Source of the DNA: Geotalea uraniireducens Rf4
GTDB taxonomy: Bacteria; Desulfobacterota; Desulfuromonadia; Geobacterales; Geobacteraceae
Length of the DNA stretch: 32,000 nt
Assembly: GCF_000016745.1 (NCBI RefSeq)
Contig: NC_009483.1
Coordinates: forward strand, 4,530,001-4,562,000
Reading direction: 5' to 3'
Part shown: positions 1,767 to 16,192 of the stretch, piece after piece
How the letters are laid out: each line of letters begins with the position of its first letter
Numbering within the stretch: position 1 is the stretch's first letter
The notes under the pieces: model-generated
The model's input: only the letters and a program-made list of their open reading frames with translations
Told to the model about the DNA's origin: nothing
The model's database searches: none
Position numbers and translations under genes: made by a program

Positions 1767-2546
1767 TCAGATGGCATAGCTGAACAGCTTATCCGCATCC
1801 AGGTGAAACTCCGCCAGCACCTCATCCTTTAGTTTCTGAAAATCATACGATGCCCGATCCCGCGGTCTGGGGAGCTGGACCGGAACGATCTTCCTGATCG
1901 TCCCCGGACGGGACGACATGATAACGATCTTGTCGGATAGATAAATCGCCTCCTCCACGTCATGGGTGACCATGATCATGGTGATGGCTTCTGCTTTCCA
2001 GATCCGCTCGATCTCCTTGTGCATGTACATGCGGGTCAGGGCGTCCAGCGCTCCCAGCGGTTCGTCGAGAAGCAGAATCTCCGGCCTGTTCACCAGCGCC
2101 CGTGCAATGGCCGCCCGCTGCGACATCCCCCCGGAAAGCTGGGACGGGTGCGCGTTTTCGAAACCGTTCAGCCCCACCAGGTCGATATGCTCCTGGATGA
2201 TTTTCTTCTTGTCCTTGCCATTCAGCTTTTTCAGTCCGAGACCGATATTTTTTTCCACCGTGAGCCACGGCAGGAGCCGATGGTCCTGGAATACCACCCC
2301 CCGGTTCAGGCTGGGACCGTTGATCTTCTTGCCGTCCACGAGGATTTCGCCGCTGTAGTCGGTTTCCAGGGAAGCCAGCAGGCGCAAAAAGGTGGTTTTT
2401 CCGCAGCCGCTCTGGCCGATGACGCTGACGAACTCTCCCGGCGACACGCTGAGGTTGATATCCTCAAGAACTGGTACCTCCTTCCCTTTGGCAACGAACT
2501 TCTTGTGCAGGTTTGCCACTTTTACTGTCCCTGGTTTCTGATACAT
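1767..2546 (-). CDS. ABC transporter ATP-binding protein, NitT/TauT (nitrate/sulfonate/taurine) family
   Basis: Walker A GQSGCGKTT, signature LSGGMSQR, Walker B ILLLDEP, H-loop VTHD. Start chosen at MYQKPG (ATG 2546), preceded by AGAAGGAGGA. The ORF-track N-terminal extension to 2660 was rejected. Confidence 0.9.
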   Translation of the reverse strand: MYQKPGTVKVANLHKKFVAKGKEVPVLEDINLSVSPGEFVSVIGQSGCGKTTFLRLLASLETDYSGEILVDGKKINGPSLNRGVVFQDHRLLPWLTVEKNIGLGLKKLNGKDKKKIIQEHIDLVGLNGFENAHPSQLSGGMSQRAAIARALVNRPEILLLDEPLGALDALTRMYMHKEIERIWKAEAITMIMVTHDVEEAIYLSDKIVIMSSRPGTIRKIVPVQLPRPRDRASYDFQKLKDEVLAEFHLDADKLFSYAI

Positions 2547-2610
2547 AACGTTCCTCCTTCTCTGCAGTTTCGGTTTAATCTCCGCCTTGCCGTTCCCTTG
2601 GTGGGGGGGG

Positions 2611-3399
2611 TCAGGAATTCCGCCACTGCATGAAACGGTTTTCAAAGGTTTTGGCCACATAGTCCAGGGCGAAACCGATGAAGCCGATAATGATAATTCC
2701 GACCATCACGATATCCATGCGCCAGTTTATGCGCCCTTGCCCGATCATGTTGCCGATCCCCCCTGCCTGGGTAAACATGAACAACTCGGCTGCGACCAGC
2801 TGCCCCCAGCCGATGTTCAGGCTCATCCGCAACCCTGTCACAAGGGAGGGGAGAACCGACGGCAGGAAGATCTTCCTGATCAGTCTGATTCTGCCGAAGC
2901 CGAAGACACGTCCTACTTCCACGTATTCCTTGCGGACACCACGTATGCCGTCGAACGTGCTGAGGACGATGGGAAACGAGCACCCGAGGGCGATGAAGAA
3001 TATCTTCGAAGCCTCGGCAATACCGCAGAAGATGATGATCAGCGGTATCCAGGCAAGCAGCGGGACCTGCCGGATGGCGTTGAACAGGGGCGCCACCAGT
3101 TTCTCCAGGGTTCTGAACATGCCGAACAGCATGCCGAGGAGAAATCCCGCCGTGATGCCGAGGAATGTTCCGGCGAAAAATCTGATAAAACTGACTTTTA
3201 GGTTAAAGGCAAGGACCCCCTCCTTCCAGAGGGAGATAAATGCCGTTACAACCTTCCCCGGCGTAGGAAGAAACATGGGGGGCACCAGTTCCCACCGGGC
3301 CAAACCCCACCATGCGGCCAGGATCAGCAGCGGGAAAATGATGCCACGACTGATTTTCCTCAGATGCTCTTTGTTGTTGAATGAAACTGTGAAACCCAT
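2611..3399 (-). CDS. ABC transporter permease, NitT/TauT family (SsuC/TauC-like)
   Basis: Multi-TM protein with an EAA-type loop '...LSTFDGIRGVRKEYVEVGRVFG'. Start chosen at ATG 3399 (AAGGAA RBS). The ORF is open up to 3480, so the start is uncertain. Confidence 0.8.
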   Translation of the reverse strand: MGFTVSFNNKEHLRKISRGIIFPLLILAAWWGLARWELVPPMFLPTPGKVVTAFISLWKEGVLAFNLKVSFIRFFAGTFLGITAGFLLGMLFGMFRTLEKLVAPLFNAIRQVPLLAWIPLIIIFCGIAEASKIFFIALGCSFPIVLSTFDGIRGVRKEYVEVGRVFGFGRIRLIRKIFLPSVLPSLVTGLRMSLNIGWGQLVAAELFMFTQAGGIGNMIGQGRINWRMDIVMVGIIIIGFIGFALDYVAKTFENRFMQWRNS

Positions 3400-3532
3400 G
3401 GTTCTATTCCTTAGTCCCTTAGAAAAATTATTTGCATGTTTTTTCGAAGAATTTTTCGTGAAGGGACTTATCCCGTTCATCGGGGTTAGGATTGCCCTTC
3501 ATAATTCATAACTCATCCTTCATACTTATCCC

Positions 3533-4309
3533 TTAGCGGTAGCTGCTCCGCCAGCGTAGGAAGTACGCTTCAACCAGCCCCGCCAGGTAGTCCATGATGA
3601 ACCCGAGGATACCGACGGTTATGATGCCGACAAAGACGATGTCGTTCTGGAAAATCTGCCTGCCCCAGTTCATCATGTAGCCGATACCGACTGAGGCAGC
3701 CAGGATCTCCGCACCGACGACCGCCATCCAGGCAAAGCTGAGGCTGATCCGCAGACCTGTGGCAATGGAGGGGAGCGCAGACGGAAGGACAAACTTTCTC
3801 AGCAGCCCCAGCCGCCCGTATTCAAAGACTTTACCTACCTCCAGGTATTCCCGCGGCACACCCCTGATCCCTTCCAGGGTATAGAGCGCCATGATGTAGA
3901 ACGGGGCGACTGCTATGAACAGCACCTTGGATTTCTCCCCGATACCGAACCAGAGGACCAGCATGGGAAACCAGGCATAGAGGGGAACCTGGCGCACCGT
4001 ATGAAACGTAGGGCCGATATACTCTTCAATTCTCTTCGACAAACCAAGTGCTGCCCCGAGAAGAATCCCTGCCAAGCTACCGATGAGAAATCCGGCAAAA
4101 ACCCGGGCAAAACTTGCCAGTAGATGATTTATCAGCTCTCCGCTGGCAATGAGGTCCTTGAATGTCTGGGCCACGATCTGCGGCGGTATCAACAACAGGC
4201 TGGAAAACAGCTCCTTGCGCGTGACGATTTCCCAGGCTATCAGCAGCAGTACCGGGACAATCAGCCCCAGGGCCTTTTTATGTAACTGCAATCCTTCCGG
4301 GAATCTCAT
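3533..4309 (-). CDS. ABC transporter permease, NitT/TauT family (second paralogue)
   Basis: Multi-TM protein with an EAA-type loop '...LYTLEGIRGVPREYLEVGKVFE'. GGGAGGA RBS before ATG 4309. Confidence 0.85.
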   Translation of the reverse strand: MRFPEGLQLHKKALGLIVPVLLLIAWEIVTRKELFSSLLLIPPQIVAQTFKDLIASGELINHLLASFARVFAGFLIGSLAGILLGAALGLSKRIEEYIGPTFHTVRQVPLYAWFPMLVLWFGIGEKSKVLFIAVAPFYIMALYTLEGIRGVPREYLEVGKVFEYGRLGLLRKFVLPSALPSIATGLRISLSFAWMAVVGAEILAASVGIGYMMNWGRQIFQNDIVFVGIITVGILGFIMDYLAGLVEAYFLRWRSSYR

Positions 4310-4497: not shown

Positions 4498-5322
4498 CTA
4501 ATGCACGATTGCCAGTCCCTTTTTTTTCTTGGCAATGGCAAAGATGGTGTGGCGGCTCAACTGGATGCCATCCTTGGTCCGGTATTTTTCCAGCTCGACC
4601 TCGATGTCCGATTTCACCTGTTCCCGCAGCCACTCCGGAACATTACTCAGGTAATTGCCGAAAGAACTCGCCTCACTGTGCCTGATGAATTCTTTCGCCG
4701 TCGGGTGGGTTCTTTTGACTGTTTTCACCTGGATGTCGATCACCTTGAGATTAACCTTTACCAACATGTTGATGAGTTCCGTGGTCGTCAGGTGGCGCTT
4801 CTCCGGCAGCTGTACGTGTTTGTTGTACGGCTCTCTCTGCAGCACACGGTTCGTGATGAACTCTATGCCGGAATAAAAATTCAGCTCCTTGGCGCCGGTG
4901 GTGATACCGACTTTCCCTCCCGGCTTGAGGACCCTGACAATTTCCAATAAAGCGGCTTCCTTATCCTGCACCCAGTGAAAAACCGCGTTCAAATAGACGA
5001 CGTCGATGCTGTTATCATTTATGGATTCAAGATTCTCGGCAGTGCCGATCTCATAATACGCATTCTGATGGGCATTCTTTTCGTTGGCGATCTTGATCCT
5101 CTCCTCAAGAGGATCTATGCCGATATATGTCCCGGTAGGCCCTATGATGTCGACCACATGGCGGCCGAGCCTGCCAGTGCCGCAACCTATATCAAGAACT
5201 GTAGCTCCCTGACTGACGTCGAGACTTTCGATCAGGGCAACCCCATTATTGAATTGCGAGTTGCTGAGTTCATCGTAGCTTTTGGCGAGTTCACTGTTAT
5301 CAAGTGTTAGAGTAATCGCCAT
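4498..5322 (-). CDS. Class I SAM-dependent methyltransferase
   Basis: Motif I 'VLDIGCGTGRLG' and post-I 'IGIDPLEE', then 'VVYLNAVFHWV' and 'LKPGGKVGITT'. Start chosen at MAITLTL (ATG 5322, AAGGAAGGA RBS). The ORF-track extension to 5388 runs into a terminator U-run. Confidence 0.8.
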   Translation of the reverse strand: MAITLTLDNSELAKSYDELSNSQFNNGVALIESLDVSQGATVLDIGCGTGRLGRHVVDIIGPTGTYIGIDPLEERIKIANEKNAHQNAYYEIGTAENLESINDNSIDVVYLNAVFHWVQDKEAALLEIVRVLKPGGKVGITTGAKELNFYSGIEFITNRVLQREPYNKHVQLPEKRHLTTTELINMLVKVNLKVIDIQVKTVKRTHPTAKEFIRHSEASSFGNYLSNVPEWLREQVKSDIEVELEKYRTKDGIQLSRHTIFAIAKKKKGLAIVH

Positions 5323-5373
5323 CGTCGCTAATCCTTCCTTGCTGCATCGCCAAGCGGAATTTGCCTGGCGCAT

Positions 5374-5468
5374 AAAAAAAGAGGCCAAGGATTATTAATC
5401 CTTGGCCTCCAGTTTTCTGGTCAGCCTTGTCCGAGCAATACGGATTGGTATTTTATTTAAACCCATTG
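5374..5468 (-). promoter_or_regulatory. Leader copy c1: conserved hairpin GGCUGACCAGAAAACUGGAGGC (5405-5426) overlapping an intrinsic terminator (stem 5381-5409, U7 at 5374-5380)
   Basis: Perfect 10-bp terminator GAGGCCAAGG/CCUUGGCCUC plus U7. The hairpin and the terminator share GGAGGCC. Paralogous to 10325-10423. Confidence 0.6.
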
Positions 5469-5470
5469 GC

Positions 5471-5490
5471 CTATCTAATAAGTAGAATAA
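5471..5490 (-). promoter_or_regulatory. Operator-like motif site A (CTACTTATTAGATAG)
   Basis: One of six related sites fitting CTAY-N7-ATAG. It overlaps the -10 element. Confidence 0.35.
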
Positions 5491-5503
5491 TAGCCAGTTT
5501 CAA
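5475..5503 (-). promoter_or_regulatory. Sigma70-like promoter TTGAAA-N17-TATTAG
   Basis: The hexamers and the 17-nt spacer were read on the minus strand. The -10 hexamer is identical to the one in the promoter-like element at 10430-10458. Confidence 0.4.
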
Positions 5504-5511
5504 TCATGATG

Positions 5512-6636
5512 TCAATGCTTTTTCGCTGTTTGCACCAAGCCGGTCCCTGTTTTTACTACTTTGCCATCCTTGTCGTATCTGGCCCAGAAATTTTCCAGTT
5601 TCAGCTCCTTCAGTGCCGCCTCCTGGTAACTGGTATCCACCCACTTATCAATATCGAAGCTCCTCTTGGCGTAGCCCTTCTTTATGGCGAAATCCAGCAG
5701 GGCTTTCAGCTGGCTCTTATGAAAGTCGTCACTCAGGACCCTCGACAATTCATAGGAAGACTCGGTTCTGTTCTGTTCCTTTATGTTGGCATAGGGGGTC
5801 CCCGCCTGGGACCAGAGCTTGAAAATTTCGGTCCGGTTCTTTTCGTCGGCCACATAACGCGATGCCTTCAGGTAGACCTTGACGAAGCGCTTCACCACGT
5901 CCGGGTACTCCTTGGCGAATTTCTCCGTCACGTAGACGGCGCTCACCGGACCGGAAGACTCTGGAAACGCTTTTTTTGGGGCTATGTACTTGATGTCGGG
6001 ATTCCCCGAATAAAGCACCTTGGCCACGCCGGTATCGCGGATCCGAATGCCAACGGCACCGGCATCAACATCCTTGGTGGCGAGAGCGGCCTCGGTATCA
6101 GTCGCCTGCAGGTTCAGCCGGACCAAGTCGTTTTCCGACAGACCATGCAGCTCCAGTGCCTTGAGGAAGGTATACTCGGTATTAGTACCCCGGATGACCC
6201 CGACTCTCTTTCCTTTCAGCTGCTGCACGGTGGTGATCTTGGAATCGCGCGGTATCATGATCTGGGCGCCTCTACTGGGCCCGCTGCCGAGAATGACTTT
6301 GGTCTTCAGCCCAGCCGCCTTGCCGATGACCGCCGGGAATGAGCCGTTTTCCGAGAAGTCGATGTTGCCGTTGGCAAATGCCTCGTTGCACGCTGGCCCC
6401 TGCCCTTTGAAGAAGTTCCACTCGAACTTGATCCCCTCCTTCTTGAACTCCTCCTCCAGAAGCCCCTTGGCATGGATGATGCCCAGGGTTCCTGAAATGA
6501 ATGGTTTGCCGTAGGCGCCGCCGGAGCTGCCGATCCTGATCACTTTCGGATATTTTTCTGCGGAAAAGGCGACGGTAGGCCCAAACGCCACTACCATCAG
6601 TAAAACGATAAATAAACTGCTCAATAACTTTTTCAT
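5512..6636 (-). CDS. Periplasmic substrate-binding protein, NMT1/SsuA/TauA-like (NitT/TauT ABC family)
   Basis: Signal peptide MKKLLSSLFIVLLMVVAFGPTVAFSA. The body, 'KVIRIGSSGG...LKGKRVGVIRGTNTEYTFLKAL', is typical of NMT1-type binding proteins. GGGAGG RBS. Confidence 0.85.
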   Translation of the reverse strand: MKKLLSSLFIVLLMVVAFGPTVAFSAEKYPKVIRIGSSGGAYGKPFISGTLGIIHAKGLLEEEFKKEGIKFEWNFFKGQGPACNEAFANGNIDFSENGSFPAVIGKAAGLKTKVILGSGPSRGAQIMIPRDSKITTVQQLKGKRVGVIRGTNTEYTFLKALELHGLSENDLVRLNLQATDTEAALATKDVDAGAVGIRIRDTGVAKVLYSGNPDIKYIAPKKAFPESSGPVSAVYVTEKFAKEYPDVVKRFVKVYLKASRYVADEKNRTEIFKLWSQAGTPYANIKEQNRTESSYELSRVLSDDFHKSQLKALLDFAIKKGYAKRSFDIDKWVDTSYQEAALKELKLENFWARYDKDGKVVKTGTGLVQTAKKH

Positions 6637-8280: not shown

Positions 8281-8332
8281 GGAAACAAAAAGACCAAGTA
8301 CATTCTTTCAACCTCCGGTTATCCGGTCAGTC
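8281..8332 (-). promoter_or_regulatory. Leader copy c3: third, diverged copy of the conserved hairpin (GACUGACCGGAUAACCGGAGGU, 8311-8332) followed by a weak stem and UCUUUUUGUUU
   Basis: The stem CCAG/CUGG of c1 and c2 is replaced by CCGG/CCGG, a compensatory change. The 11-nt UCUUUUUGUUU is identical to the c2 terminator tail. Confidence 0.5.
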
Positions 8333-8394
8333 ACGCCGATGGTTACCGGTGGCCGGGTCCTGATTTTTTCCTTAACGAAAGCCGACTACCTGAA

Positions 8395-10324
8395 ATCGGG
8401 TAGGAGGCGGGATTGCTCCCGCCGTCCTCCCACACCACCGTGCGTACGGTTCCGTACACGGCGGTTCATGAAGTACGTTGAAGTCGGTGAAGCTGGTCTA
8501 TGAGTGATACCAGCCCCAGTTTGTCGAAGTAGAATTTCGGAACAGCTTTGTTCATATGCGCGGCCCCTGCATTCCACCAGGGGCCGCGGCCGTTTGTGGC
8601 CGACCGCCATGCAGTTGCCTCCGATAATCCCCGCCGCATCAGTTTCTTTGCTCGCGTCTTGGGGCGCTTCCACTGCTTCCAGAGAATGCGACGCAGTTTA
8701 CGTCTCAGCCATCCGTCCAGTTCCTCGAAGATGCCTTTTACTTCCGCGTACCGAAAGTAGTTTAACCAACCCCTAAGTTTCGGGGTTGTCTCTTCAACGG
8801 TGGTTTGGATGTTCTGACCCCTTCCCCGCCTAAAGATCGTCTTGAGGTTGGCCTTGAGCCTGGCAGCCGCTTTCTTGGCCACGGTAAGCCGCGGTTTGCG
8901 GTGCCGGGTCATGCTGTAACTCAGAAACGACCTTTTCCACGGACGGTCAACCGCGCTTTTGCCCTGGTTGACCGTGAGCTTGAGCCGCTCGGACAGGTAG
9001 CCGGTAATTGAGGCCATGACACGCTCGCCGCTTCTCCTCGTTGCAACATAGATATTTGCGTCGTCGGCATAGCGGCAGAACTTATGGCCCCTTCTTTCCA
9101 GTTTCTTGTCCAGTTCGTCGAGGAGGATGTTGGACAGCAGCGGCGAGAGAGGCCCGCCTTGCGGCGTGCCTTCCAACCGGGGTGACGTCACTCCTCCTTC
9201 AAGTATCCCTGCCTTAAGGTAGCTGTCGATAAGGGACAGCACCAGACGGTCTCCAACCTTGCGTTTCACCAGCGACATAAGGGTGTCGTGGTGGACTCGG
9301 TCGAAAAATTTCTCAAGGTCAATGTCAACCACCCACCTAAGGCCGCTCTCTACATACTTCCGAGCTGCCTTGATCGCTTGATGGGCGCTCCGTCCAGGGC
9401 GAAACCCGTGGGAACTTATGGAGAAACCAGGGTCGAACAGCGGGCTCAAAACTTGATGCACCGCCTGCTGAATGAGTCGGTCAAGGACGGTGGGAATTCC
9501 CAGCATCCGTGTGCCGCCTCCCGGTTTGGGAATTTCTACTTTCCGCACCGGTTGCGGGTGATACGTTCCCGTCAGCAGTTCTTCTCTGATGCGCGGCCAT
9601 TCCTCCTGTAGGTAGCCCTTCAGGGCCGTTACCGGCATGTTATCGACGCCGGGCGCTCCCTTGTTGCGCATTACCCGTGAGTATGCCGCCATCATGTTGC
9701 CGCGACTGACGATCTTCTCCATCAGTCCCGTTGCCGCTTCCGGCCAGTGAGCTGCTTTCCTTCCCGTGACGTTTGCCGCACCTCTCCCTTTCTCTCGCGG
9801 TTTCCAACCGCTACCCTCCGGGCTGGCGCCGGGTATCCCAACCCGGCCTTCTGCTGCTCCTGTCGTCATCGAAACTCAAGGCTCCTGTCCGCTTACTTCA
9901 AGTTCGGCCCTTTGTCGGTCGGTTATTCCGACTCGTATGGCCTCTGCTGACTTCTGCCAACCCATCCCGGCACCTCTCGATGCCGGTAGCACAAGGCAGG
10001 TTGACAGACCTCCCAGGGTAATGCGCGTGACCTTCATCCCATATACCCGCCGCATCTACTTCCACATCTTTCTGGATGGTTATCGGGCTTTGAATCTGTT
10101 TGCCTTCTCGCCCAGATGTGGCTGCCTCATATGCGATTCCTGTTCGTCGGGCCAGGACTTTGCCTACAGCTTCCTTCAGATTCCGGGTCGCCCCGGACAC
10201 CCTTGCTGTTCAGCTATCGGTTCCCACCATCAGGGTCCGAAGAGGACTTTCACCTCCAAGTCACCAATCAGGCACCATACCCAATTGGATGGCGCTTACG
10301 CGCCACGCGCCATGCCTGGCGCAC
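8395..10324 (-). mobile_element. Group II intron, bacterial class C-like (about 1.93 kb); 3' end accurate to a few nt
   Basis: The 5' end reads GUGCGCC at 10324. Domain V (8435-8464) is CCGCCGUGUACG-GAAC-CGUACGCACGGUGG with a CGC triad and a 2-nt bulge. Domain VI (8398-8431) has a GCAA loop and a bulged A at 8401. An internal RT/maturase ORF is present. The insertion lies 9 nt after a terminator stem. Confidence 0.85.
8466..9722 (-). CDS. Group II intron-encoded reverse transcriptase/maturase (no endonuclease domain)
   Basis: RT motifs '...GVDNMPV...', 'TPQGGPLSPLLSNILL' and 'FCRYADDANIYV', followed by a maturase X region and an ending '...FYFDKLGLVSL'. Start chosen at MEKIVSRGN (ATG 9722), giving about 418 aa. 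Confidence 0.9.
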   Translation of the reverse strand: MEKIVSRGNMMAAYSRVMRNKGAPGVDNMPVTALKGYLQEEWPRIREELLTGTYHPQPVRKVEIPKPGGGTRMLGIPTVLDRLIQQAVHQVLSPLFDPGFSISSHGFRPGRSAHQAIKAARKYVESGLRWVVDIDLEKFFDRVHHDTLMSLVKRKVGDRLVLSLIDSYLKAGILEGGVTSPRLEGTPQGGPLSPLLSNILLDELDKKLERRGHKFCRYADDANIYVATRRSGERVMASITGYLSERLKLTVNQGKSAVDRPWKRSFLSYSMTRHRKPRLTVAKKAAARLKANLKTIFRRGRGQNIQTTVEETTPKLRGWLNYFRYAEVKGIFEELDGWLRRKLRRILWKQWKRPKTRAKKLMRRGLSEATAWRSATNGRGPWWNAGAAHMNKAVPKFYFDKLGLVSLIDQLHRLQRTS

Positions 10325-10423
10325 AAACAAAAAGAGGCTAAGGAAATTTCCTTAGCCTCCAGTTGTCTGGTCAGCCGCCGTTCGTTAAGAACCGGTTACT
10401 TAAACTTATTTACCTATCGTTTT
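10325..10423 (-). promoter_or_regulatory. Leader copy c2: conserved hairpin GGCUGACCAGACAACUGGAGGC (10355-10376) overlapping an intrinsic terminator (stem 10334-10359, U-run 10325-10333)
   Basis: The terminator GAGGCUAAGG/CCUUAGCCUC differs from c1 by one compensatory pair. The group II intron starts immediately downstream at 10324. Confidence 0.6.
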
Positions 10424-10432
10424 AATAGACTA
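10411..10432 (-). promoter_or_regulatory. Operator-like motif site B (CTATTAAAACGATAG)
   Basis: Fits CTAY-N7-ATAG. Located just downstream of the -10 element. Confidence 0.35.
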
Positions 10433-10458
10433 ATATCAGGTATAAAAAATGCTGTCAA
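10430..10458 (-). promoter_or_regulatory. Sigma70-like promoter TTGACA-N17-TATTAG
   Basis: Consensus -35 hexamer, 17-nt spacer and the same -10 hexamer as at 5475-5480. It lies 36 nt downstream of the nifH-like stop. Confidence 0.5.
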
Positions 10459-10493: not shown

Positions 10494-11360
10494 TTAAATT
10501 CCTTCGCCATTCGATATTACTCCAGTTTCCAACTCAACAATCCGGTCACCCCACCCCCTGGCCCAGTTTGTCATTTCCTCACGGGAGAGCGAATGGGGAA
10601 GGCCAACCGCTTCATGCTCGGCGATATGCCTTGCCAGACGTCGGTAGAGGTAGGCGTGGTTCGACAGTGGCGCAGCGTCAATCACGGTACGGCCGTAGAG
10701 CTCGCACTGCATAACCACCAGCGAACGGGGTATGTACCGAACATCCGTCACCCCCGTTTTAGCGGCGAAGTCGGCGATTATCGACTCCATGAATGGAGCG
10801 GCCAGGCCGTTGGCAAGTATGCCGCCGAATGTCAATCGCCCTCCGTCCCCGTGCTTCTGGATGGTCCTGAGGATATTGTTGGCAGCAAAGATCGACATGA
10901 AATCCGATGAGCTCACCACATAAACCCGTTCCGCGATGCCATTGAGGAGCGGCGCGGTAATGCCGCCGCAGACCGCTTCCGCCGATACGTCGTACAGGAC
11001 AAAGTCCGGCCGGTAGCTCTCCAGGAAGGACGGTTCACCCAACCGGGAAATAACGGCTTTGAAACGATGTCCGCTGCAACCCACATGCGGATCAGGCATG
11101 CCCGCCTCGACGCAGAGAACCCCTTTGAATCCGGTGACGGCCACATCTTCCACAGCCAGAGGCCGCTTTGACGAGAGGAGATCAAGGATGGTTTTTACTC
11201 TCACATCGCCCCTGAGGGTTCTTGTCGAATCATGTCTGGCGTCAAACCCGATCTGGACGACCCGGAATCCCAACTCGGCCAGTGCCGCACTGATGTTTGC
11301 GGCCGTGGTCGAGGTCCCGACGCCTCCCTTGCCATACAGGACAATATGCTGCGCAGCCAT
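10494..11360 (-). CDS. NifH/BchL-family Fe-protein-like ATPase, orphan, with a degenerate Walker A
   Basis: Alignable by eye to NifH across most of its length. 'CVEAGMPDPHVGCSGHR' and 'YDVSAEAVCGGI' keep both 4Fe-4S ligand cysteines. The P-loop is GKGGVGTSTT, against GKGGIGKSTT in NifH. No NifD/K/E/N-like partner is present in the window. Confidence 0.8.
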   Translation of the reverse strand: MAAQHIVLYGKGGVGTSTTAANISAALAELGFRVVQIGFDARHDSTRTLRGDVRVKTILDLLSSKRPLAVEDVAVTGFKGVLCVEAGMPDPHVGCSGHRFKAVISRLGEPSFLESYRPDFVLYDVSAEAVCGGITAPLLNGIAERVYVVSSSDFMSIFAANNILRTIQKHGDGGRLTFGGILANGLAAPFMESIIADFAAKTGVTDVRYIPRSLVVMQCELYGRTVIDAAPLSNHAYLYRRLARHIAEHEAVGLPHSLSREEMTNWARGWGDRIVELETGVISNGEGI

Positions 11361-11427
11361 GGATAATCCTCTCTTCCGGGAGCTTATGCCTCATTTTCAG
11401 ACCATGAGGCGCCGACCTCAATGATAT

Positions 11428-11449
11428 AAATCTATCTACTTAATAGACT
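11428..11449 (-). promoter_or_regulatory. Operator-like motif site C (CTATTAAGTAGATAG)
   Basis: Fits CTAY-N7-ATAG. It lies about 70-90 nt upstream of the nifH-like start. Confidence 0.35.
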
Positions 11450-11495
11450 TATAATGTAAAAAATTTTCCCTGCTTTTACCTTCAATTCAGGGATT

Positions 11496-11516
11496 ATCGA
11501 CTAATCTACTTAAGTC
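11496..11516 (-). promoter_or_regulatory. Operator-like motif site D (CTTAAGTAGATTAG), weaker match
   Basis: Shares the TAAGTAGAT core. It overlaps the yezD stop codon. Confidence 0.25.
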
Positions 11517-11673
11517 TGATCTTTTCGTTGCGATCAATCTGAATCACCTTGCCATCCTGGATTACCAAGGTAACGGTCCCGTAACGGATCGCCCCCACGG
11601 ATTCGCGGATCCTCTGCTCCAGCTCCCGGCTCCACGCTTGCGTTGTTACTGTTTCGACACTTCTTATCATCAT
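11506..11673 (-). CDS. yezD: YezD/DUF2292-family small protein (55 aa; below the ORF-track length cut-off)
   Basis: Hand translation gives MMIRSVETVTTQAWSRELEQRIRESVGAIRYGTVTLVIQDGKVIQIDRNEKIRLK. 'YG(S/T)V.L.IQDGKV.QI...EK.R' is the DUF2292 pattern. A GGAGG RBS lies 3 nt upstream. Confidence 0.7.
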   Translation of the reverse strand: MMIRSVETVTTQAWSRELEQRIRESVGAIRYGTVTLVIQDGKVIQIDRNEKIRLK

Positions 11674-11719: not shown

Positions 11720-12790
11720 TCATATCTGGTAATCATCGACAAACACGCGGAACTTCCGTGCCCTGACAAAAACGGTTTCACCAACCTTGAGCGCCAGTTT
11801 CTGGTAAACATCCCTGGTCAGTTCCGCATCGAGGCTTTCAAAGGTATCCCCCCGCTCCAGTTCTACCCGCACGATCGGCCCGATCGAGTGGATATGGCGA
11901 ATCACCGCTTCGACAGAGGAACTGTCCGCGTAGCAACGCTCGATCTCCAGGTCGTGGGGGCGCACATAGCCGACTGCCGGCTGGTCCGGCAAAGCCGCAT
12001 GCTCCGGGGCGGACAGTTCCATTTGCCCAAGCTGCACATGACCATCATGGACCCTGCCGTGGAAGAGGTTGACGTTGCCGAGGAAGTTGTAGACAAAGGG
12101 CGTCGCGGGGCGGTCGTAGACCTCCTCCGGTGTTCCCGCCTGCTCGACCCTGCCCTGGTTCATGATCACCACCCGGTCGGCGACCTCAAGGGCCTCCTCC
12201 TGATCATGGGTGACGAAGACGCTCGTGATATGCAGCTCGTCATGGAGCCTGCGCAGCCAGCGGCGCAGCTCCTGGCGGACCCGCGCATCGAGGGCGCCGA
12301 ATGGCTCGTCGAGAAGCAGTACCTTCGGCTCCACCGCCAGGGCCCGGGCCAAGGCAACCCGCTGGCGCTGCCCGCCGGAAAGCTGGGACGGAAAACGATG
12401 GGCCATCCCCTCCAGCTGTACGAGACGGATCAGCTCATGGACCTTGGTGCTGATCTCCGCCTTGCCCGGTCGGGTACTGCGCGGCCGGACCTTGAGACCA
12501 AAGGCGATGTTTTCAAAAACCGTCATATGCTTGAACAGGGCGTAGTGCTGGAAGACGAACCCCACCTTCCGCTCGCGGACGGCCCGACGCGTGGTGTCCT
12601 CCCCGTGGAAGCGGATGCTTCCGCTATCCGGGGTTTCCAGGCCGGCGATGATCCGCAGCAGTGTGGTTTTGCCGCAGCCGGACGGACCAAGAAGGGCGAT
12701 CAGCTCGCCGGTCGGGATATCCACGCTGACATCCTTGAGTGCAGCAAATCCGTTGAAGCTCTTGGTTATGTTCTTTACATCAATACTCAT
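11720..12790 (-). CDS. cysA: Sulfate/thiosulfate ABC transporter ATP-binding protein
   Basis: Walker [25 protein letters not shown] and VTHD, plus a C-terminal regulatory domain. Synteny with cysT, cysW and sbp. Confidence 0.9.
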
Positions 12791-12817: not shown

Positions 12818-13702
12818 TTACTCATTGCCGGGCACCGGTTGCCGTTCCCGATTGAGCCGCCACTCCACCAAGCTCTTTGCCACCAGGGTAACGATGGCCA
12901 GCATCGCCAGGAGCGACGCGACGGCAAATGCCGCCACGTAGTTATATTCGTTGTAAAGGATCTCCACATGAAGGGGCATGGTATTGGTGGAACCGCGCAC
13001 ATGGCCGGAGACCACCGATACTGCACCGAATTCCCCCATGGCGCGGGCATTACAGAGGATGACGCCGTAAAGAATCCCCCACTTGATGTTCGGCAGGGTC
13101 ACCCTGAAGAAGGTCTGCAACCCGCCGGCGCCCAGAACCAGGGCAGCCTCCTCTTCATCCTTCCCCTGCGCCTCCATGAGGGGGATGAGTTCCCTCGCCA
13201 CGAAGGGAAAGGTAACGAAGATGGTTGCCAGGATGATCCCCGGCACGGCAAAGAGGATCTTGACGTCGTGCGCCTGCAACCACGGCCCGAACCATCCCTG
13301 GAGCCCGAAGAGCAGCACATAAATCAGACCGGATATGACCGGAGAAACGGAGAAAGGGAGATCGATCAGGGTGATGAGAAAACTCTTGCCGGGAAAGTCG
13401 AACTTGGCGATCACCCATGCGGCGATAACGCCGAAAACCAGGTTGAGCGGCACGCAGACCGCCGCCGTCAGCAGGGTGAGCTTGATGGAGGCAATGGCGT
13501 CCGGGTCGCGGAAAGCGGCGAAGTAAGCCGCTGCCCCCTTTTCCAGGGCCTGGCTGAAGACCGCCGCCAACGGCAGCAGAAGGAAGAGACCGAGAAAGAT
13601 GAGCGCAACGGTGATGAGCAGCCAGCGCACTGCTGCCGGTTCCGTCAATTCCGCACCGGGTATCCGGTCCTTTTTAGGTTTCAAGCCGCCAATCGGATTC
13701 AT
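12818..13702 (-). CDS. cysW: Sulfate ABC transporter permease
   Basis: Start chosen at [11 protein letters not shown] (ATG 13702, GGGGGGAG RBS). The ORF-track extension to 14167 overlaps cysT and was rejected. Multi-TM with '...[25 protein letters not shown]'. Confidence 0.85.
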
Positions 13703-13716
13703 TCTCCCCCCTTTCT

Positions 13717-14553
13717 TTATTGTTCCGCAAACCGTCTGCTCCATTTCTGGAGCAGGTTGACGGCAAACAGCAGGATGAACGAGGCCGAGAGCATGACCGA
13801 GGCAATGGCGGTGGCCCCGGCATAATCGTACTGTTCCAGCTTGGTGATGATCAGGAGCGGGGTGATTTCCGAGACCATCGGCATGTTGCCGGCTATGAAG
13901 ATGATCGAGCCGTACTCTCCGACCGCCCTGGCAAAGGAGAGGGCAAATCCGGTCAGGAGTGAGGGGAGCATGACGGGAAACAGGACCCGGTGAAACGTCT
14001 GCCAGCGGTTGGCGCCCAAGCAGGCGGCGGCCTCCTCGATTTCCGTTTCCAGCTCCTCCAGCACTGGCTGGACGGTGCGCACGACAAACGGCAGGCCGAT
14101 GAAGACCATTGCCACGAGAATGCCGAGGGGCGTATAGGCGACCTTGATGCCGTGCGGTTCCAGCCATTTGCCGAGCCAGCCGTTCGGGGCGTAGACCGAT
14201 GCCAGGGTAATGCCGGCAACGGCTGTCGGCAGGGCAAAGGGGAGATCGACCAGGGCATCGATGATCCTTTTGCCGGGAAAGCGGTAACGCACCAGTACCC
14301 AGGCCACCAGCACCCCGAACAGAGCATTGATGGACGCCGCCAGGAGTGCAGCGCCGAAGGTCACCCGGTAGGAGGCGACCACCCGCGGCGCGGTTACGGC
14401 CGCGACAAAATCCCCGAAGGTGAGGGTTGCCGTTTTGAAAACCAGCGCAGACAGAGGAATCAGCACGATCAGACAGAGATAGAAAATCGTGTAGCCGAGT
14501 GTCAAGCCGAATCCGGGCAGGACGTTATGTCGTTTCTTGATGAAAAATTTCAT
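13717..14553 (-). CDS. cysT: Sulfate ABC transporter permease
   Basis: The CysT-like N-terminus reads [34 protein letters not shown]. The EAA loop is '[21 protein letters not shown]'. Confidence 0.88.
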
Positions 14554-14644: not shown

Positions 14645-15658
14645 TCACTTGCTCGGTTTATAGATCTGGTCAAACAACCCGCCATCGGTAAAGTGTTTCT
14701 TCTGGGCCGCTCGCCAACCGCCGAAAAGCTCATCGATGGTGAAGAGCTTCACCTTGGGAAAGTTCTTGGCGTACTTTGCCGCCACCTTCTTGTCGCGGGG
14801 GCGATAGTAGTTCTTGGCCGCAATCTCCTGCCCTTCAGGGGTGTAGAGATACTTGAGGTACTCTTCCGCTACCTTGCGGGTCCCCTTCTTGTCCACCACC
14901 TTGTCCACCACGGCTACCGGCGGTTCTGCGAGGATGCTCAGCGACGGAACAACGATCTCGAACTTGTCTTTACCCAGTTCGTTCACAGCGAGAAATGCCT
15001 CGTTCTCCCAGGCGAGAAGCACGTCGCCGATCCCCCTCTGGACAAAGGTGGTCGTTGAGCCACGGGCGCCGGAATCAAGGACCGGAACGTTCTTGAACAG
15101 CTTGCCGACAAATTCCTTTGCCTTGGCTTCGTTGCCCCCCTTCTGCTTCAGGGCGTAGCCCCAGGCAGCCAGGTAGTTCCAGCGGGCGCCGCCGGAGGTT
15201 TTCGGGTTCGGTGTAATCACCGAGATCCCAGGTTTCACCAGGTCATTCCAGTCCCTGATTTTCTTCGGGTTGCCTTTGCGGACCAGGAAGACAATGGTGG
15301 AGGTGTAAGGGGAACTGTTATTTGGCAGACGCTTCTGCCAATTGGCAGGGATCAGCTTGGCCTTGTCGTGAATTTCATCGATGTCGTAAGCCAGCGCCAG
15401 CGTCACCACATCGGCTTCAAGGCCGTCGATGACTGCACGCGCCTGCTTGCCGGAACCGCCGTGGGACTGCTTGACGGTAATGTTCTCCCCGCTCTTTTTC
15501 TTCCAGTACTGGGCAAAGGCCCCGTTGAAGTCCTGGTAGAGCTCCCGGGTCGGGTCATAGGAAACGTTGAGCAGGCTTACTTCCGCCAGCGCGGCGACGG
15601 GCACGGAAACGGCCAGGGCCGCGAAGACGAGGATTTTGCTTATTTTTTTCAATAACAT
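14645..15658 (-). CDS. sbp: Periplasmic sulfate/thiosulfate-binding protein
   Basis: Signal peptide followed by '[66 protein letters not shown]', a strong Sbp/CysP signature. AAGGAGG RBS. Confidence 0.9.
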
Positions 15659-15730: not shown

Positions 15731-16192
15731 TTAGATGTAGTAGTGCAAGACCCCTTTACCCTGCTGCTCCGCCTTCTCGGTACGCTCAAGTACATCTGCA
15801 AGGGTTGTTCCGTCGAGGATCTTGGCCATCGCATCACGGACATCCTTCATCATCAACCGGATGCCGCAGGTTCTTTCATCCACGCATTCATCACATTTTG
15901 CATAGGCGGTTTCGCTCACGCAGGGAACCGGGGCCAACGGTCCCTCAAGAATCCGTATTACGGTGCCCATACTGATATCCTTGGGAGACTTACCCAGGTA
16001 GTAGCCTCCCCCCTTACCTTTCCTGCTCTGGAGTATGCCGTTGTTTTTCAGGGTCAGCAGGATCAGCTCCAGGAATTTTTTCGGGATCCGCTCATCCCGC
16101 GCAAGATCCGCAATCAGGATCGGCCCCTTGTCATAGACCCTGGCGAGATAAATAATCGCCTTTAAGGCGTATTTTGTTTTTTTGGAAATCAT
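15731..16192 (-). CDS. Rrf2-family transcriptional regulator with a Cys-rich (probable Fe-S) segment
   Basis: The N-terminal wHTH reads 'MISKKTKYALKAIIYLA...IADLARDERIPKKFLELILLTLKNNGILQSRKGKGGGYYL'. The cysteines are 'PCVSETAYAKCDECVDERTC'. Confidence 0.85.
   Translation of the reverse strand: MISKKTKYALKAIIYLARVYDKGPILIADLARDERIPKKFLELILLTLKNNGILQSRKGKGGGYYLGKSPKDISMGTVIRILEGPLAPVPCVSETAYAKCDECVDERTCGIRLMMKDVRDAMAKILDGTTLADVLERTEKAEQQGKGVLHYYI

Follow-up and report, generated by a model that had tools for sequence, protein, structure and literature searches.

We analyzed a 32,000-nucleotide (nt) stretch of the Geotalea uraniireducens Rf4 genome (NC_009483.1, positions 4,530,001 to 4,562,000; hereafter the window), which holds three copies (c1, c2, and c3) of a small RNA hairpin that in c1 and c2 is fused to an intrinsic transcription terminator. 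With a probability that we put at roughly 55%, c1 belongs to a widespread class of transcription attenuators that serve the sulfur-starvation regulon, and the small protein YezD (DUF2292) would be its likeliest trans-acting factor. All tabulated features of the surrounding cluster lie on the minus strand and are listed from high to low coordinates, with Pfam used for gene families.

15731-16192, minus strand: Rrf2-family (CymR-like) regulator gene (Pfam Rrf2)
14645-15658, minus strand: sulfate-binding protein gene (Pfam)
13717-14553, minus strand: overlapping open reading frame (ORF)
12818-14167, minus strand: cysW-like ATP-binding cassette (ABC) permease gene (Pfam)
11720-12790, minus strand: cysA (Pfam)
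11506-11673, minus strand: yezD (DUF2292, 55 amino acids), the final gene after cysA (Pfam PF10055, 68.4 bits)
10494-11360, minus strand: NifH-like gene
10458-10325, minus strand: copy c2, promoter-like site to terminator
about 10324-8395, minus strand: group II intron (Rfam RF02001, RF01998, RF00029)
8332-8310, minus strand: hairpin of copy c3
about 8166-6667, minus strand: porin O/P gene
5512-6636, minus strand: NMT1-type binding-protein gene
5515-5373, minus strand: copy c1, promoter-like site to U-run
4498-5322, minus strand: class I S-adenosylmethionine (SAM)-dependent methyltransferase gene, the first gene after c1 (Pfam)
3533-4309 and 2611-3480, minus strand: two ABC permease genes (Pfam)
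1767-2660, minus strand: ABC ATPase gene (Pfam)

The gene context is one of sulfur metabolism: the porin O/P, NMT1-type protein, methyltransferase, and ABC importer genes stand beside those for CysA, the CysW-like permease, the sulfate-binding protein, and the Rrf2 regulator, the last of which scores 92.8 bits with the NCBIfam CymR model, under that model's cut-off. The yezD gene shares the strand of the hairpins and precedes c2 by 1.1 kb and c1 by 6 kb, and its product is 100% identical to the Geotalea uraniireducens entry "YezD family protein." Copy c1 adjoins the binding-protein gene, about 100 nt past its stop, and c2 lies behind the NifH-like gene. On the plus strand, an ORF at 262-1647 flanks the ABC operon and has a weak, sub-threshold match to the transposase-like Pfam family DDE_5.

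Alternative structures in the three copies

The c1 hairpin, GGCUGACCAGAAAACUGGAGGCC (GGCU-GA-CCAG-AAAA-CUGG-A-GGCC), covers 23 nt at 5426-5404 on the minus strand, with a conserved core at 5424-5406. Folded alone it adopts the structure ((((..((((....)))).)))) at -10.6 kcal/mol, and none of 200 shuffles folds as well. The c1 terminator, GGAGGCCAAGGAUU-AAU-AAUCCUUGGCCUCU, at 5410-5380 on the same strand, has 14 pairs (-23.1 kcal/mol) and is followed by U7 (U-run at 5379-5373). GGAGGCC is common to the 3′ strand of the hairpin and the 5′ arm of the terminator, and because it is shared, the two structures are mutually exclusive. These alternatives appear directly in minimum-energy folds: the 115-nt c1 transcript forms the terminator, and an 83-nt transcript without the terminator 3′ arm forms the hairpin. 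The leader is short, at about 60 nt from putative start to terminator. The other two copies comprise the following.

10376-10354, minus strand: c2 hairpin GGCUGACCAGACAACUGGAGGCU (-8.9 kcal/mol)
10360-10333, minus strand: c2 terminator stem-loop (12 pairs, -19.9 kcal/mol), with a U-rich tail at 10332-10325
8332-8310, minus strand: c3 hairpin GACUGACCGGAUAACCGGAGGUU, intact (-8.4 kcal/mol)

The c2 hairpin matches that of c1 at 21 of 22 positions, and the c2 terminator carries a C-to-U change paired with a G-to-A change. In c3, the inner stem reads CCGG/CCGG (A-U to G-C) and the outer stem has A-U for G-C, while the terminator has decayed, the sequence behind the hairpin folding at only -1.4 kcal/mol; the 3′ strand of the hairpin forms the base of a terminator 5′ arm in c1 and c2, not in c3. 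The core pattern has three exact matches in the window, where about one would be expected even with two mismatches permitted. With our covariance model R1 (described below), the copies score 42.6 bits (c1, E = 1.4e-11), 39.2 bits (c2), and 36.1 bits (c3), values that are partly circular in that these are 3 of the model's 53 training sequences.

An earlier note on this DNA had described a hairpin fused through GGAGGCC to a perfect terminator with U7, a copy at 10325-10458 with 21/22 identity in the hairpin and a compensated terminator change, and a third, diverged copy with CCAG/CUGG turned into CCGG/CCGG. The sequence is as claimed and the alternative folds were computed; both further copies were confirmed, the third having turned out to lack its terminator. 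The note had also counted a small upstream UCCG...CGGA leader hairpin as part of the module, and this we could not uphold: it is not conserved in the wider family, and the upstream leader regions of c1, c2, c3, and a related locus (L041) each contain some local hairpin, with nothing conserved among them.

Two short ORFs occur near these copies. A candidate c1 leader peptide (23 codons, AUG GGU ... UAA, ending in the terminator loop) was rejected, as the c2 leader has no AUG. In c3, an AUG stands 8 nt behind GGAGG and begins an ORF of 11 codons (MYLVFLFPMGK, 8302-8334, minus strand); the porin start (MKVVKVASLLL..., about 8166) lies about 145 nt downstream of this copy.

Conservation and covariation across phyla

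We scanned a collection with one genome per species for CTGACCNGANAACNGGAGG (16 fixed bases), and at least 120 loci match. In 51 of the 120 matches listed, the inner pair is complementary and a hairpin with a U-run (a terminator) starts inside NGGAGG; at random positions of those loci the same terminator test is passed in only 76 of 1,500 cases, a far lower rate. The pair flanking the core, which is not in the search pattern, is paired in 51 of the 52 distinct sequences among the matches listed, as G-C (31), A-U (12), G-U (6), or U-G (2). Carriers among these matches include Clostridia, Lachnospiraceae, Sporomusaceae, the Bacillus cereus group, Kurthia, Siminovitchia, and heliobacteria, along with Geobacter, Desulfuromonadaceae, Methylobacter, Methylomirabilia, Dehalococcoidales, Actinomycetes, Armatimonadota, and Treponema, so that the core CUGACYNG-ANAA-CNRGAGG with its terminator spans Bacillota, Geobacterales, Actinomycetota, Chloroflexota, Spirochaetes, and other phyla. 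The genes that come next, assigned in part by eye, belong mostly to sulfur assimilation; they encode NMT1 binding proteins, Cys/Met pyridoxal phosphate enzymes, CysK, 3′-phosphoadenosine 5′-phosphosulfate reductase (cysH), ATP sulfurylase (sat), sulfite reductase subunits, sulfate-binding protein, sulfonate/sulfate ABC permeases, MetQ-like lipoprotein, an Rrf2 regulator, and NifB/NifX/NifH-like proteins. A search of other genomes, as the earlier note had proposed, therefore finds the motif again in Geobacter and in many phyla, ahead of sulfur-assimilation genes.

An independent set of 80 metagenome loci was fetched by YezD protein alone and searched with R1, whose training set comprised nothing but sequences from the genome scan plus c1, c2, and c3. 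The model finds 61 hairpins in 55 of the 80 loci, several of which hold two or three, and all 61 lie on the yezD strand; with a strict structural descriptor, 45 of the 80 have a hairpin no farther than 140 nt from the yezD stop. In this set 97.9% of cells are paired, and five of the eight pairs covary (among them C-G 36/U-A 16; A-U 31/G-C 22; G-C 29/A-U 23; and C-G 40/U-G 12/U-A 3). The observed covariation score was reached by none of 500 shuffles, and all slid registers collapse. Positions A4, C5, G16, A17, and G18 are invariant in the independent set, and the family consensus is N-CU-[GA]-CYNG, an A-rich loop of 4 to 5 nt (ANAA), and CNRG-[A]-GG-N′, 21 to 23 nt in all, with U2, G3, A4, A17, and G18 invariant or almost so. 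Terminator fusion is found for 51 of 58 distinct R1 matches. Covariation in a set chosen independently, together with terminator fusion across phyla, bears out the earlier suggestion of a selected RNA structure.

Could c1 and c2 nonetheless be nothing more than the 3′ terminators of the binding-protein and NifH-like genes, with a neutral or repeat-derived hairpin in front? Their positions behind those genes fit this explanation; it does not fit a hairpin that covaries and is conserved across phyla, that overlaps the terminator arm constantly, and that has sulfur genes downstream on the same strand. The hairpin is also joined to another kind of structure. In L034 and L183 the terminator is replaced by a helix that pairs GGAGG with a stretch at or just after the start codon (CCUCC in L034, AACCUC in L183), and these helices, which sequester the start-codon/ribosome-binding region, cannot be gene-end terminators. 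We consider an absence of any regulatory role highly improbable.

Three further readings of the motif were tried and rejected. A DNA operator, suggested by the CCAG-N4-CUGG palindrome, does not account for the invariant U-G wobble or the asymmetric GA/A loop, and is also ruled out by the 61/61 strand bias and the constant overlap with the terminator arm. A Shine-Dalgarno or anti-Shine-Dalgarno role for GGAGG fails on the variants AGAGG, AAAGG, and GAAGG, which occur with compensating changes opposite. A signal resembling a selenocysteine insertion sequence, or another stop-codon signal built on the UGA of the hairpin, was rejected as a general explanation, since many copies have no ORF reading in.

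The chief alternative to the model favored here, possible but unlikely, is a very small riboswitch, in which the hairpin itself would bind a sulfur-status molecule or ion (candidates are O-acetylserine/N-acetylserine, O-acetylhomoserine, sulfide, sulfite, and thiosulfate) and thereby stabilize the antiterminator, yezD being merely a frequent first gene. Such a sensor would suit the almost invariant internal-loop sequence (UGAC/GAGG) across at least eight phyla and the use of one sensor with two expression platforms, the terminator and the helix over the start-codon/ribosome-binding region. It would also suit the multiple or tandem copies per locus (c2 with c3, L050, L143), which recall guanidine-II tandem hairpins, and the many plain 5′-leader copies without yezD nearby (c1, c2, L041, L058, and the Bacillus ssuB leader). 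Counting against it, we know of no validated natural aptamer as small as a single 21- to 23-nt hairpin with a 2×1 internal loop, and the relationship of the hairpin to yezD, described in the next section, is left unexplained.

Several loci have unusual arrangements or targets. L050 (a Clostridium sp. metagenome-assembled genome [MAG]) and L004 have two hairpins about 25 nt apart (CTGACCAGAAAACTGGAGG-cagggg-GCTGACTAGATAAACTAGAGGC) and no obvious terminator, which could be a cooperative or decoy arrangement. In Bacillus mobilis and B. fungorum (L033, L092) the hairpin-terminator precedes the gene for immune inhibitor A (InhA, peptidase M6), which suggests that this protease helps the B. cereus group to scavenge sulfur or amino acids. 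A lone NifH-like ATPase gene follows yezD in the window (10494-11360), and inspection by eye shows the same for the Geobacter-type loci L125, L126, and L128; elsewhere (L043, L073) the attenuator repeatedly stands ahead of NifH-like genes along with NifB-like and NifX-like ones. These NifH/NifB/NifX-like clusters may be a nitrogenase-like sulfur-scavenging system.

Linkage between the hairpin and yezD

Many Firmicute hairpins start a few bases after an ORF that ends in ...IQIDKNEKIRLK, and its product is the DUF2292/YezD protein that the window encodes at 11506-11673. We built a hidden Markov model (HMM) from these ORFs and used it to detect yezD in 8-kb regions around the scan loci. Among the matches listed, yezD occurs within 8 kb in 27 of the 51 loci that pass the terminator test, invariably on the hairpin strand, and in 19 of those 27 it sits no more than 134 nt upstream of the hairpin; of the remaining 69 listed matches only 7 have yezD, and at least L034 among these is a genuine variant without a U-run. 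The distance from the yezD stop to the hairpin ranges from -8 to +136 nt and is 12 nt or less in about half of the yezD-adjacent cases, and a dozen loci use the UGA within C-UGA-C of the hairpin itself as the yezD stop codon. Two MAGs (L064/L089 and L073/L086) have hairpins beside yezD and also on other contigs. Apart from yezD, no gene is consistently linked to the hairpin among the surveyed loci.

The association extends to a divergent DUF2292 paralogue (...EGKPIRIEEIKKSIKL), which scores above the Pfam cut-off in three loci (L013, L017, and L060) and is recognized in L021 by our own HMM. The same hairpin-terminator follows it, ahead of DUF4430, Ig-like, or prenyltransferase-like genes, and a cobalamin riboswitch was detected upstream of the paralogue in L017 and L021. 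Judged by these loci, the DUF2292 gene and the hairpin move together even outside sulfur metabolism and are reused in B12-related operons. In L017, DUF2292-like ORFs flank the hairpin on both sides.

These observations bear on the riboswitch alternative, which explains neither the travel of the DUF2292 gene, including the divergent paralogue, into cobalamin-riboswitch operons nor the frequent abutting or overlap of the hairpin with the yezD stop codon. The same closeness would be expected if yezD served as a long leader ORF, with the ribosome at its stop deciding between hairpin and terminator, possibly through an arrest peptide. The stop lies close to or within the hairpin as noted above, and the C-terminal 25 residues are the most conserved part of YezD. 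Translational coupling of this kind is nevertheless quite improbable: no conserved ORF precedes the stand-alone copies c1, c2, c3, and the Bacillus ssuB leader (c2 lacks the 23-codon ORF of c1), the stop-hairpin distance varies, the tail after the EKxRL motif runs from 1 to about 19 residues and is unfit for a fixed arrest point, and ribosome position alone does not account for a conserved hairpin sequence.

In gut-type loci a further gene is found here. A tRNA-Cys(GCA) gene directly follows yezD in 11 of 12 such loci (L144, L146, L157, L161, L163, L165, L175, L182, L193, L196, and L197), about 60 to 90 nt past the yezD stop; the hairpin-terminator lies between the two genes in 10 loci, L157 having no hairpin. 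NifB-like radical-SAM genes follow in eight of the tRNA-Cys loci, with NifX/NifH-like genes assigned solely by ORF size. Next to its acceptor stem this tRNA seems to carry G, not the usual U73, so that it may not be an ordinary tRNA-Cys.

Another trans-acting factor could in principle act on the hairpin, be it a tRNA (tRNA-Cys, for instance), a small RNA, or some RNA-binding protein other than YezD. The absence of yezD from about half of the hairpin-holding 8-kb regions would be consistent with this, as would the tRNA-Cys(GCA) gene beside the attenuator in gut-type loci and the putative nature of RNA binding by YezD, for whose fold the PDB search gave no significant match. We nevertheless judge it improbable. 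No gene besides yezD is consistently linked, no UGC specifier or T-box-like UGGN bulge was seen, neither T-box nor ANTAR families of Rfam matched, and the tRNA-Cys gene, being downstream of the terminator, looks like a target of control and not like a sensor input.

YezD is favored as the factor because its genomic linkage to the hairpin runs both ways, because the two share a strand, because the paralogue has been co-transferred to B12-type loci, and because the gene order is HutP-like; by our estimate, that YezD acts here is close to an even bet. The earlier note had not noticed this linkage, the strongest lead to the mechanism. An AlphaFold2 model of YezD consists of a helix (residues 6 to 28) and a beta-hairpin, with a predicted local distance difference test score (pLDDT) of 72. 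A tblastn search of plasmids gave three yezD loci, and both of those examined lacked the hairpin. Full-text literature searches for DUF2292, YezD, or OscA as RNA binders found none, YezD appearing only as an annotation label. As for a link to Pseudomonas OscA, the NCBIfam match lies below threshold (29.7 bits against a cut-off of 85), and protein searches toward OscA returned close relatives only. PMC2996968, citing Viti 2009, describes OscA as a small protein without an assigned function and reports that both sulfur starvation and chromate induce the oscA-sbp unit.

Several points weigh against a YezD-controlled attenuator. Sequence conservation of this degree across phyla is more typical of riboswitches than of protein-binding leaders, and if sulfur-type and B12-type YezD proteins recognize the same hairpin, cross-talk would be a problem. 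Foldseek found no significant match to the YezD model in the PDB (best E = 4.1), and a YezD sequence search of the PDB found nothing. About 30% of yezD loci have no hairpin within 2.5 kb, and none was found within 3.5 kb of the Paenibacillus and Novosphingobium yezD genes. In Novosphingobium the annotated yezD closes its operon, after a cysA-like ATPase gene. YezD could accordingly be a transporter accessory protein that is merely co-regulated, given the Paenibacillus and Novosphingobium genes without hairpins and the position of yezD at the end of the Novosphingobium operon.

Comparison with known regulatory RNAs

Searched at gathering thresholds, Rfam 15 matches only the group II intron in the whole window and no family at the motif in 18 related loci; within 5200-5600, at E values up to 10, the best match reaches 19.3 bits against a threshold of 37. 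The families thus without a match at the motif include SAM-I to VI, SAH, SAM/SAH, sul1, T-box, the ANTAR target, the PyrR site, and the ykkC classes. The earlier note's failure to match the motif to known riboswitch cores was thus borne out once an Rfam cmscan search had been run. Two specific families were considered and rejected. A cysteine T-box would call for a match to RF00230, which was not obtained, and for a longer leader than the roughly 60 nt found here, besides the missing specifier and bulge. An ANTAR dual-hairpin leader would have two tandem hairpins whose hexanucleotide loops carry A1 and G4, with the second overlapping the terminator; it has no Rfam match either, and here there is one conserved hairpin with a 4- to 5-nt ANAA-type loop, the upstream hairpin not being conserved, although no search for an ANTAR protein in the window was made.

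The nearest precedent is the leader of the sulfonate utilization operon of Bacillus. In B. subtilis the ssu operon was reportedly found by van der Ploeg et al. in 2001 to be controlled both at initiation and by termination in the leader, and to our knowledge the factor acting on that leader has never been identified. The Bacillus ssuB leader and c1 would be alike in combining a promoter-level repressor with leader termination, in Bacillus ahead of a sulfonate ABC operon. Naville and Gautheret (2010; PMC2965389, supplementary file 3) listed an "ssuB-ABC-leader" cluster from B. anthracis, B. cereus, and B. thuringiensis, for which they only suggested a role in sulfonate metabolism. That leader (...UUGCUGAUUGGAGAAACCAAAGGCAUUUUAUC...GAUAAAAUGCCUUUGGUUUUUUU) contains the same hairpin, terminator-fused, with a loop of 5 nt and with U5U6/A15A16 for C-G pairs. 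In B. licheniformis the ssuB leader GCGCUGAUCGGUCAACCGAAGGCUC (PMC2965389) likewise has it. What was listed in 2010 is a computational cluster of a handful of Bacillus sequences that carries no annotation, small-hairpin model, survey, YezD link, or Rfam entry, and full-text literature searches found no named motif apart from that supplement. The claim that the element is new therefore holds in part: it is absent from Rfam 15, but it was predicted, uncharacterized, in 2010 (PMC2965389). Its kind, a terminator/antiterminator switch, is known, and the sensor module is new apart from this passing prediction.

Among protein-dependent switches, two systems offer parallels for YezD. The order of yezD, terminator, and structural genes copies that of hutP, terminator, and hutHUIG. 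HutP of the B. subtilis hut operon binds RNA just downstream of its own gene and causes read-through (PMC2425495); for YezD this is hypothetical. HutP is a hexamer that binds NAG repeats and destabilizes a terminator, whereas here a single structured hairpin competes with the terminator, and YezD has no detectable sequence or fold similarity to HutP. The ribonucleic antiterminators (RATs) bound by BglG, SacY, and LicT resemble the element in form, as short hairpins (about 25 to 30 nt) with conserved internal loops that overlap the terminator 5′ arm. In those systems a small dimeric RNA-binding domain (about 55 amino acids) stabilizes the RAT against default termination, a proposed parallel for YezD; unlike them, there is no PRD/CAT protein here, and the RAT sequence is different.

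Among RNA-only elements, the hydroxymethylpyrimidine pyrophosphate (HMP-PP; thiS motif), guanidine-II (mini-ykkC), and preQ1-I classes are similar in joining a tiny conserved hairpin to an expression platform and in occurring as tandem copies. They differ in that cmscan matches none of them here and in that riboswitches are not usually tied so closely to a protein gene. The sul1 motif (Weinberg et al. 2017; PMC5737381) is likewise an orphan cis-regulatory candidate upstream of sulfate-transporter and other sulfur genes, but it is a different, alphaproteobacterial structure that is in Rfam and has no match here.

Putative promoters, operator-like boxes, and a group II intron

Promoter-like sequences and a family of repeats accompany the copies.

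5515-5510 and 5492-5487, minus strand: c1 promoter-like TTGACA-N17-TATTAT, agreeing with the consensus at 11 of 12 positions and overlapping the stop codon of the NMT1 gene
10458-10453 and 10435-10430, minus strand: c2 promoter-like TTGACA-N17-TATTAG, aligning with the c1 site
5464-5492, minus strand: operator-like box TATTATTCTACTTATTAGATAGGCC over the c1 -10/+1 region (repeat family D1)
10407-10435 and 11425-11453, minus strand: sister operator-like boxes (repeat family D1)

We infer from its fit to the consensus that the c1 TTGACA-N17-TATTAT would act as a promoter. The earlier note had instead proposed TTGAAA-N17-TATTAG for c1; alignment of c1 with c2 replaces this, and the proposed TATTAG falls inside the operator-like box. 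For c2, its -10 element TATTAG and N17 spacer hold, and c1 has the same spacer length, but its homologous -10 is TATTAT. The boxes have the form TCTAT-N7-ATAGA / ...AACGATAGG(A/T)AATA and overlap the -10/+1 regions of three promoters in the cluster, and similar boxes (CGATAGGAATA) follow consensus TTGACA-N17-TATAAT promoters in the hairpin-bearing metagenome loci L130, L135, L143, and L152. They resemble the CymR box and are probably the site of the Rrf2/CymR-like regulator encoded at 15731-16192, which would give two-level control by a repressor and an attenuator.

The group II intron at about 10324-8395 (minus strand), which the earlier note did not notice, has Rfam matches to D1-D4 and to domain V/VI and contains a reverse transcriptase/maturase ORF at 8466-9869. 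Its 5′ end, GTGCG (10324-10320), lies 9 nt past the c2 terminator stem, directly behind the U-run; insertion behind a terminator is the target preference of class C introns. The intron parts c2 from c3; without it, only about 114 nt of the porin-operon leader would lie between them. It interrupts that leader but is not part of the attenuator. After the c1 U-run, TGCGCCAGGCA (5361-5371) is the same as nt 2 to 12 of the c2 intron (10313-10323), and a downstream TGGCG is common to both; this could be a remnant of an earlier intron insertion or deletion at c1, or part of the c1/c2 duplication.

Proposed mechanism

The folds and the gene context support a hairpin-terminator switch that would act in cis ahead of the sulfur and ABC-transport genes, as the earlier note had proposed; the direction of control, the binding of YezD, and the signal are what we infer. 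Transcription would start at a promoter that carries a CymR-like operator, and the leader would first form the 21- to 23-nt hairpin N-CU-[GA]-CYNG-ANAA-CNRG-[A]-GG-N′, whose 3′ strand would also build the lower end of the 5′ arm in an intrinsic terminator of far greater stability. By default the terminator would win, and transcription would stop before the methyltransferase and ABC-importer genes (c1) or the porin and binding-protein genes (c2). Under sulfur limitation a trans-acting factor would bind and lock the small hairpin, probably by contacting the invariant UGAC...GAGG internal-loop region, so that the base of the terminator could not close and RNA polymerase would read through. The likeliest factor would be YezD (DUF2292, OscA-like), encoded in the same cluster and acting on RNA in the manner of HutP or BglG/SacY.

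Implications for sulfur regulation

Accounts of sulfur assimilation rely mainly on CymR, S-box, and T-box control in Firmicutes and on CysB in Proteobacteria. The element described here would add a second, RNA-level layer in Bacillota, Geobacterales, Actinomycetota, Chloroflexota, Spirochaetes, and other groups, one that is uncatalogued and outside Rfam 15. Its covariance model would improve the annotation of sulfur regulons in metagenomes, and the element would mark as sulfur-starvation genes some whose role has been obscure, such as the NifB/NifX/NifH-like clusters, the odd tRNA-Cys, and the InhA protease of the B. cereus group. At about 60 nt, it might also serve as a compact switch for engineering.

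The proposal offers a concrete function for DUF2292/YezD/OscA, a common small protein known only by a sulfur-starvation/chromate phenotype (PMC2996968), and a possible explanation of why termination in the Bacillus ssu leader is reported to depend on sulfur. Were the RNA alone to sense a ligand, it would be smaller than every natural riboswitch aptamer known, and would be the first to report sulfur status through a signal besides SAM and S-adenosylhomocysteine. More broadly, and with a little less than even confidence, we suggest that DUF2292 (YezD/OscA) is a widespread new family of small RNA-binding antiterminators, each recognizing a 21- to 23-nt hairpin that overlaps a terminator. If so, this would explain both the missing factor of Bacillus ssu leader termination and the function of OscA, and protein and hairpin together would form a portable module that gates sulfur-starvation regulons in many phyla and some B12-uptake operons.

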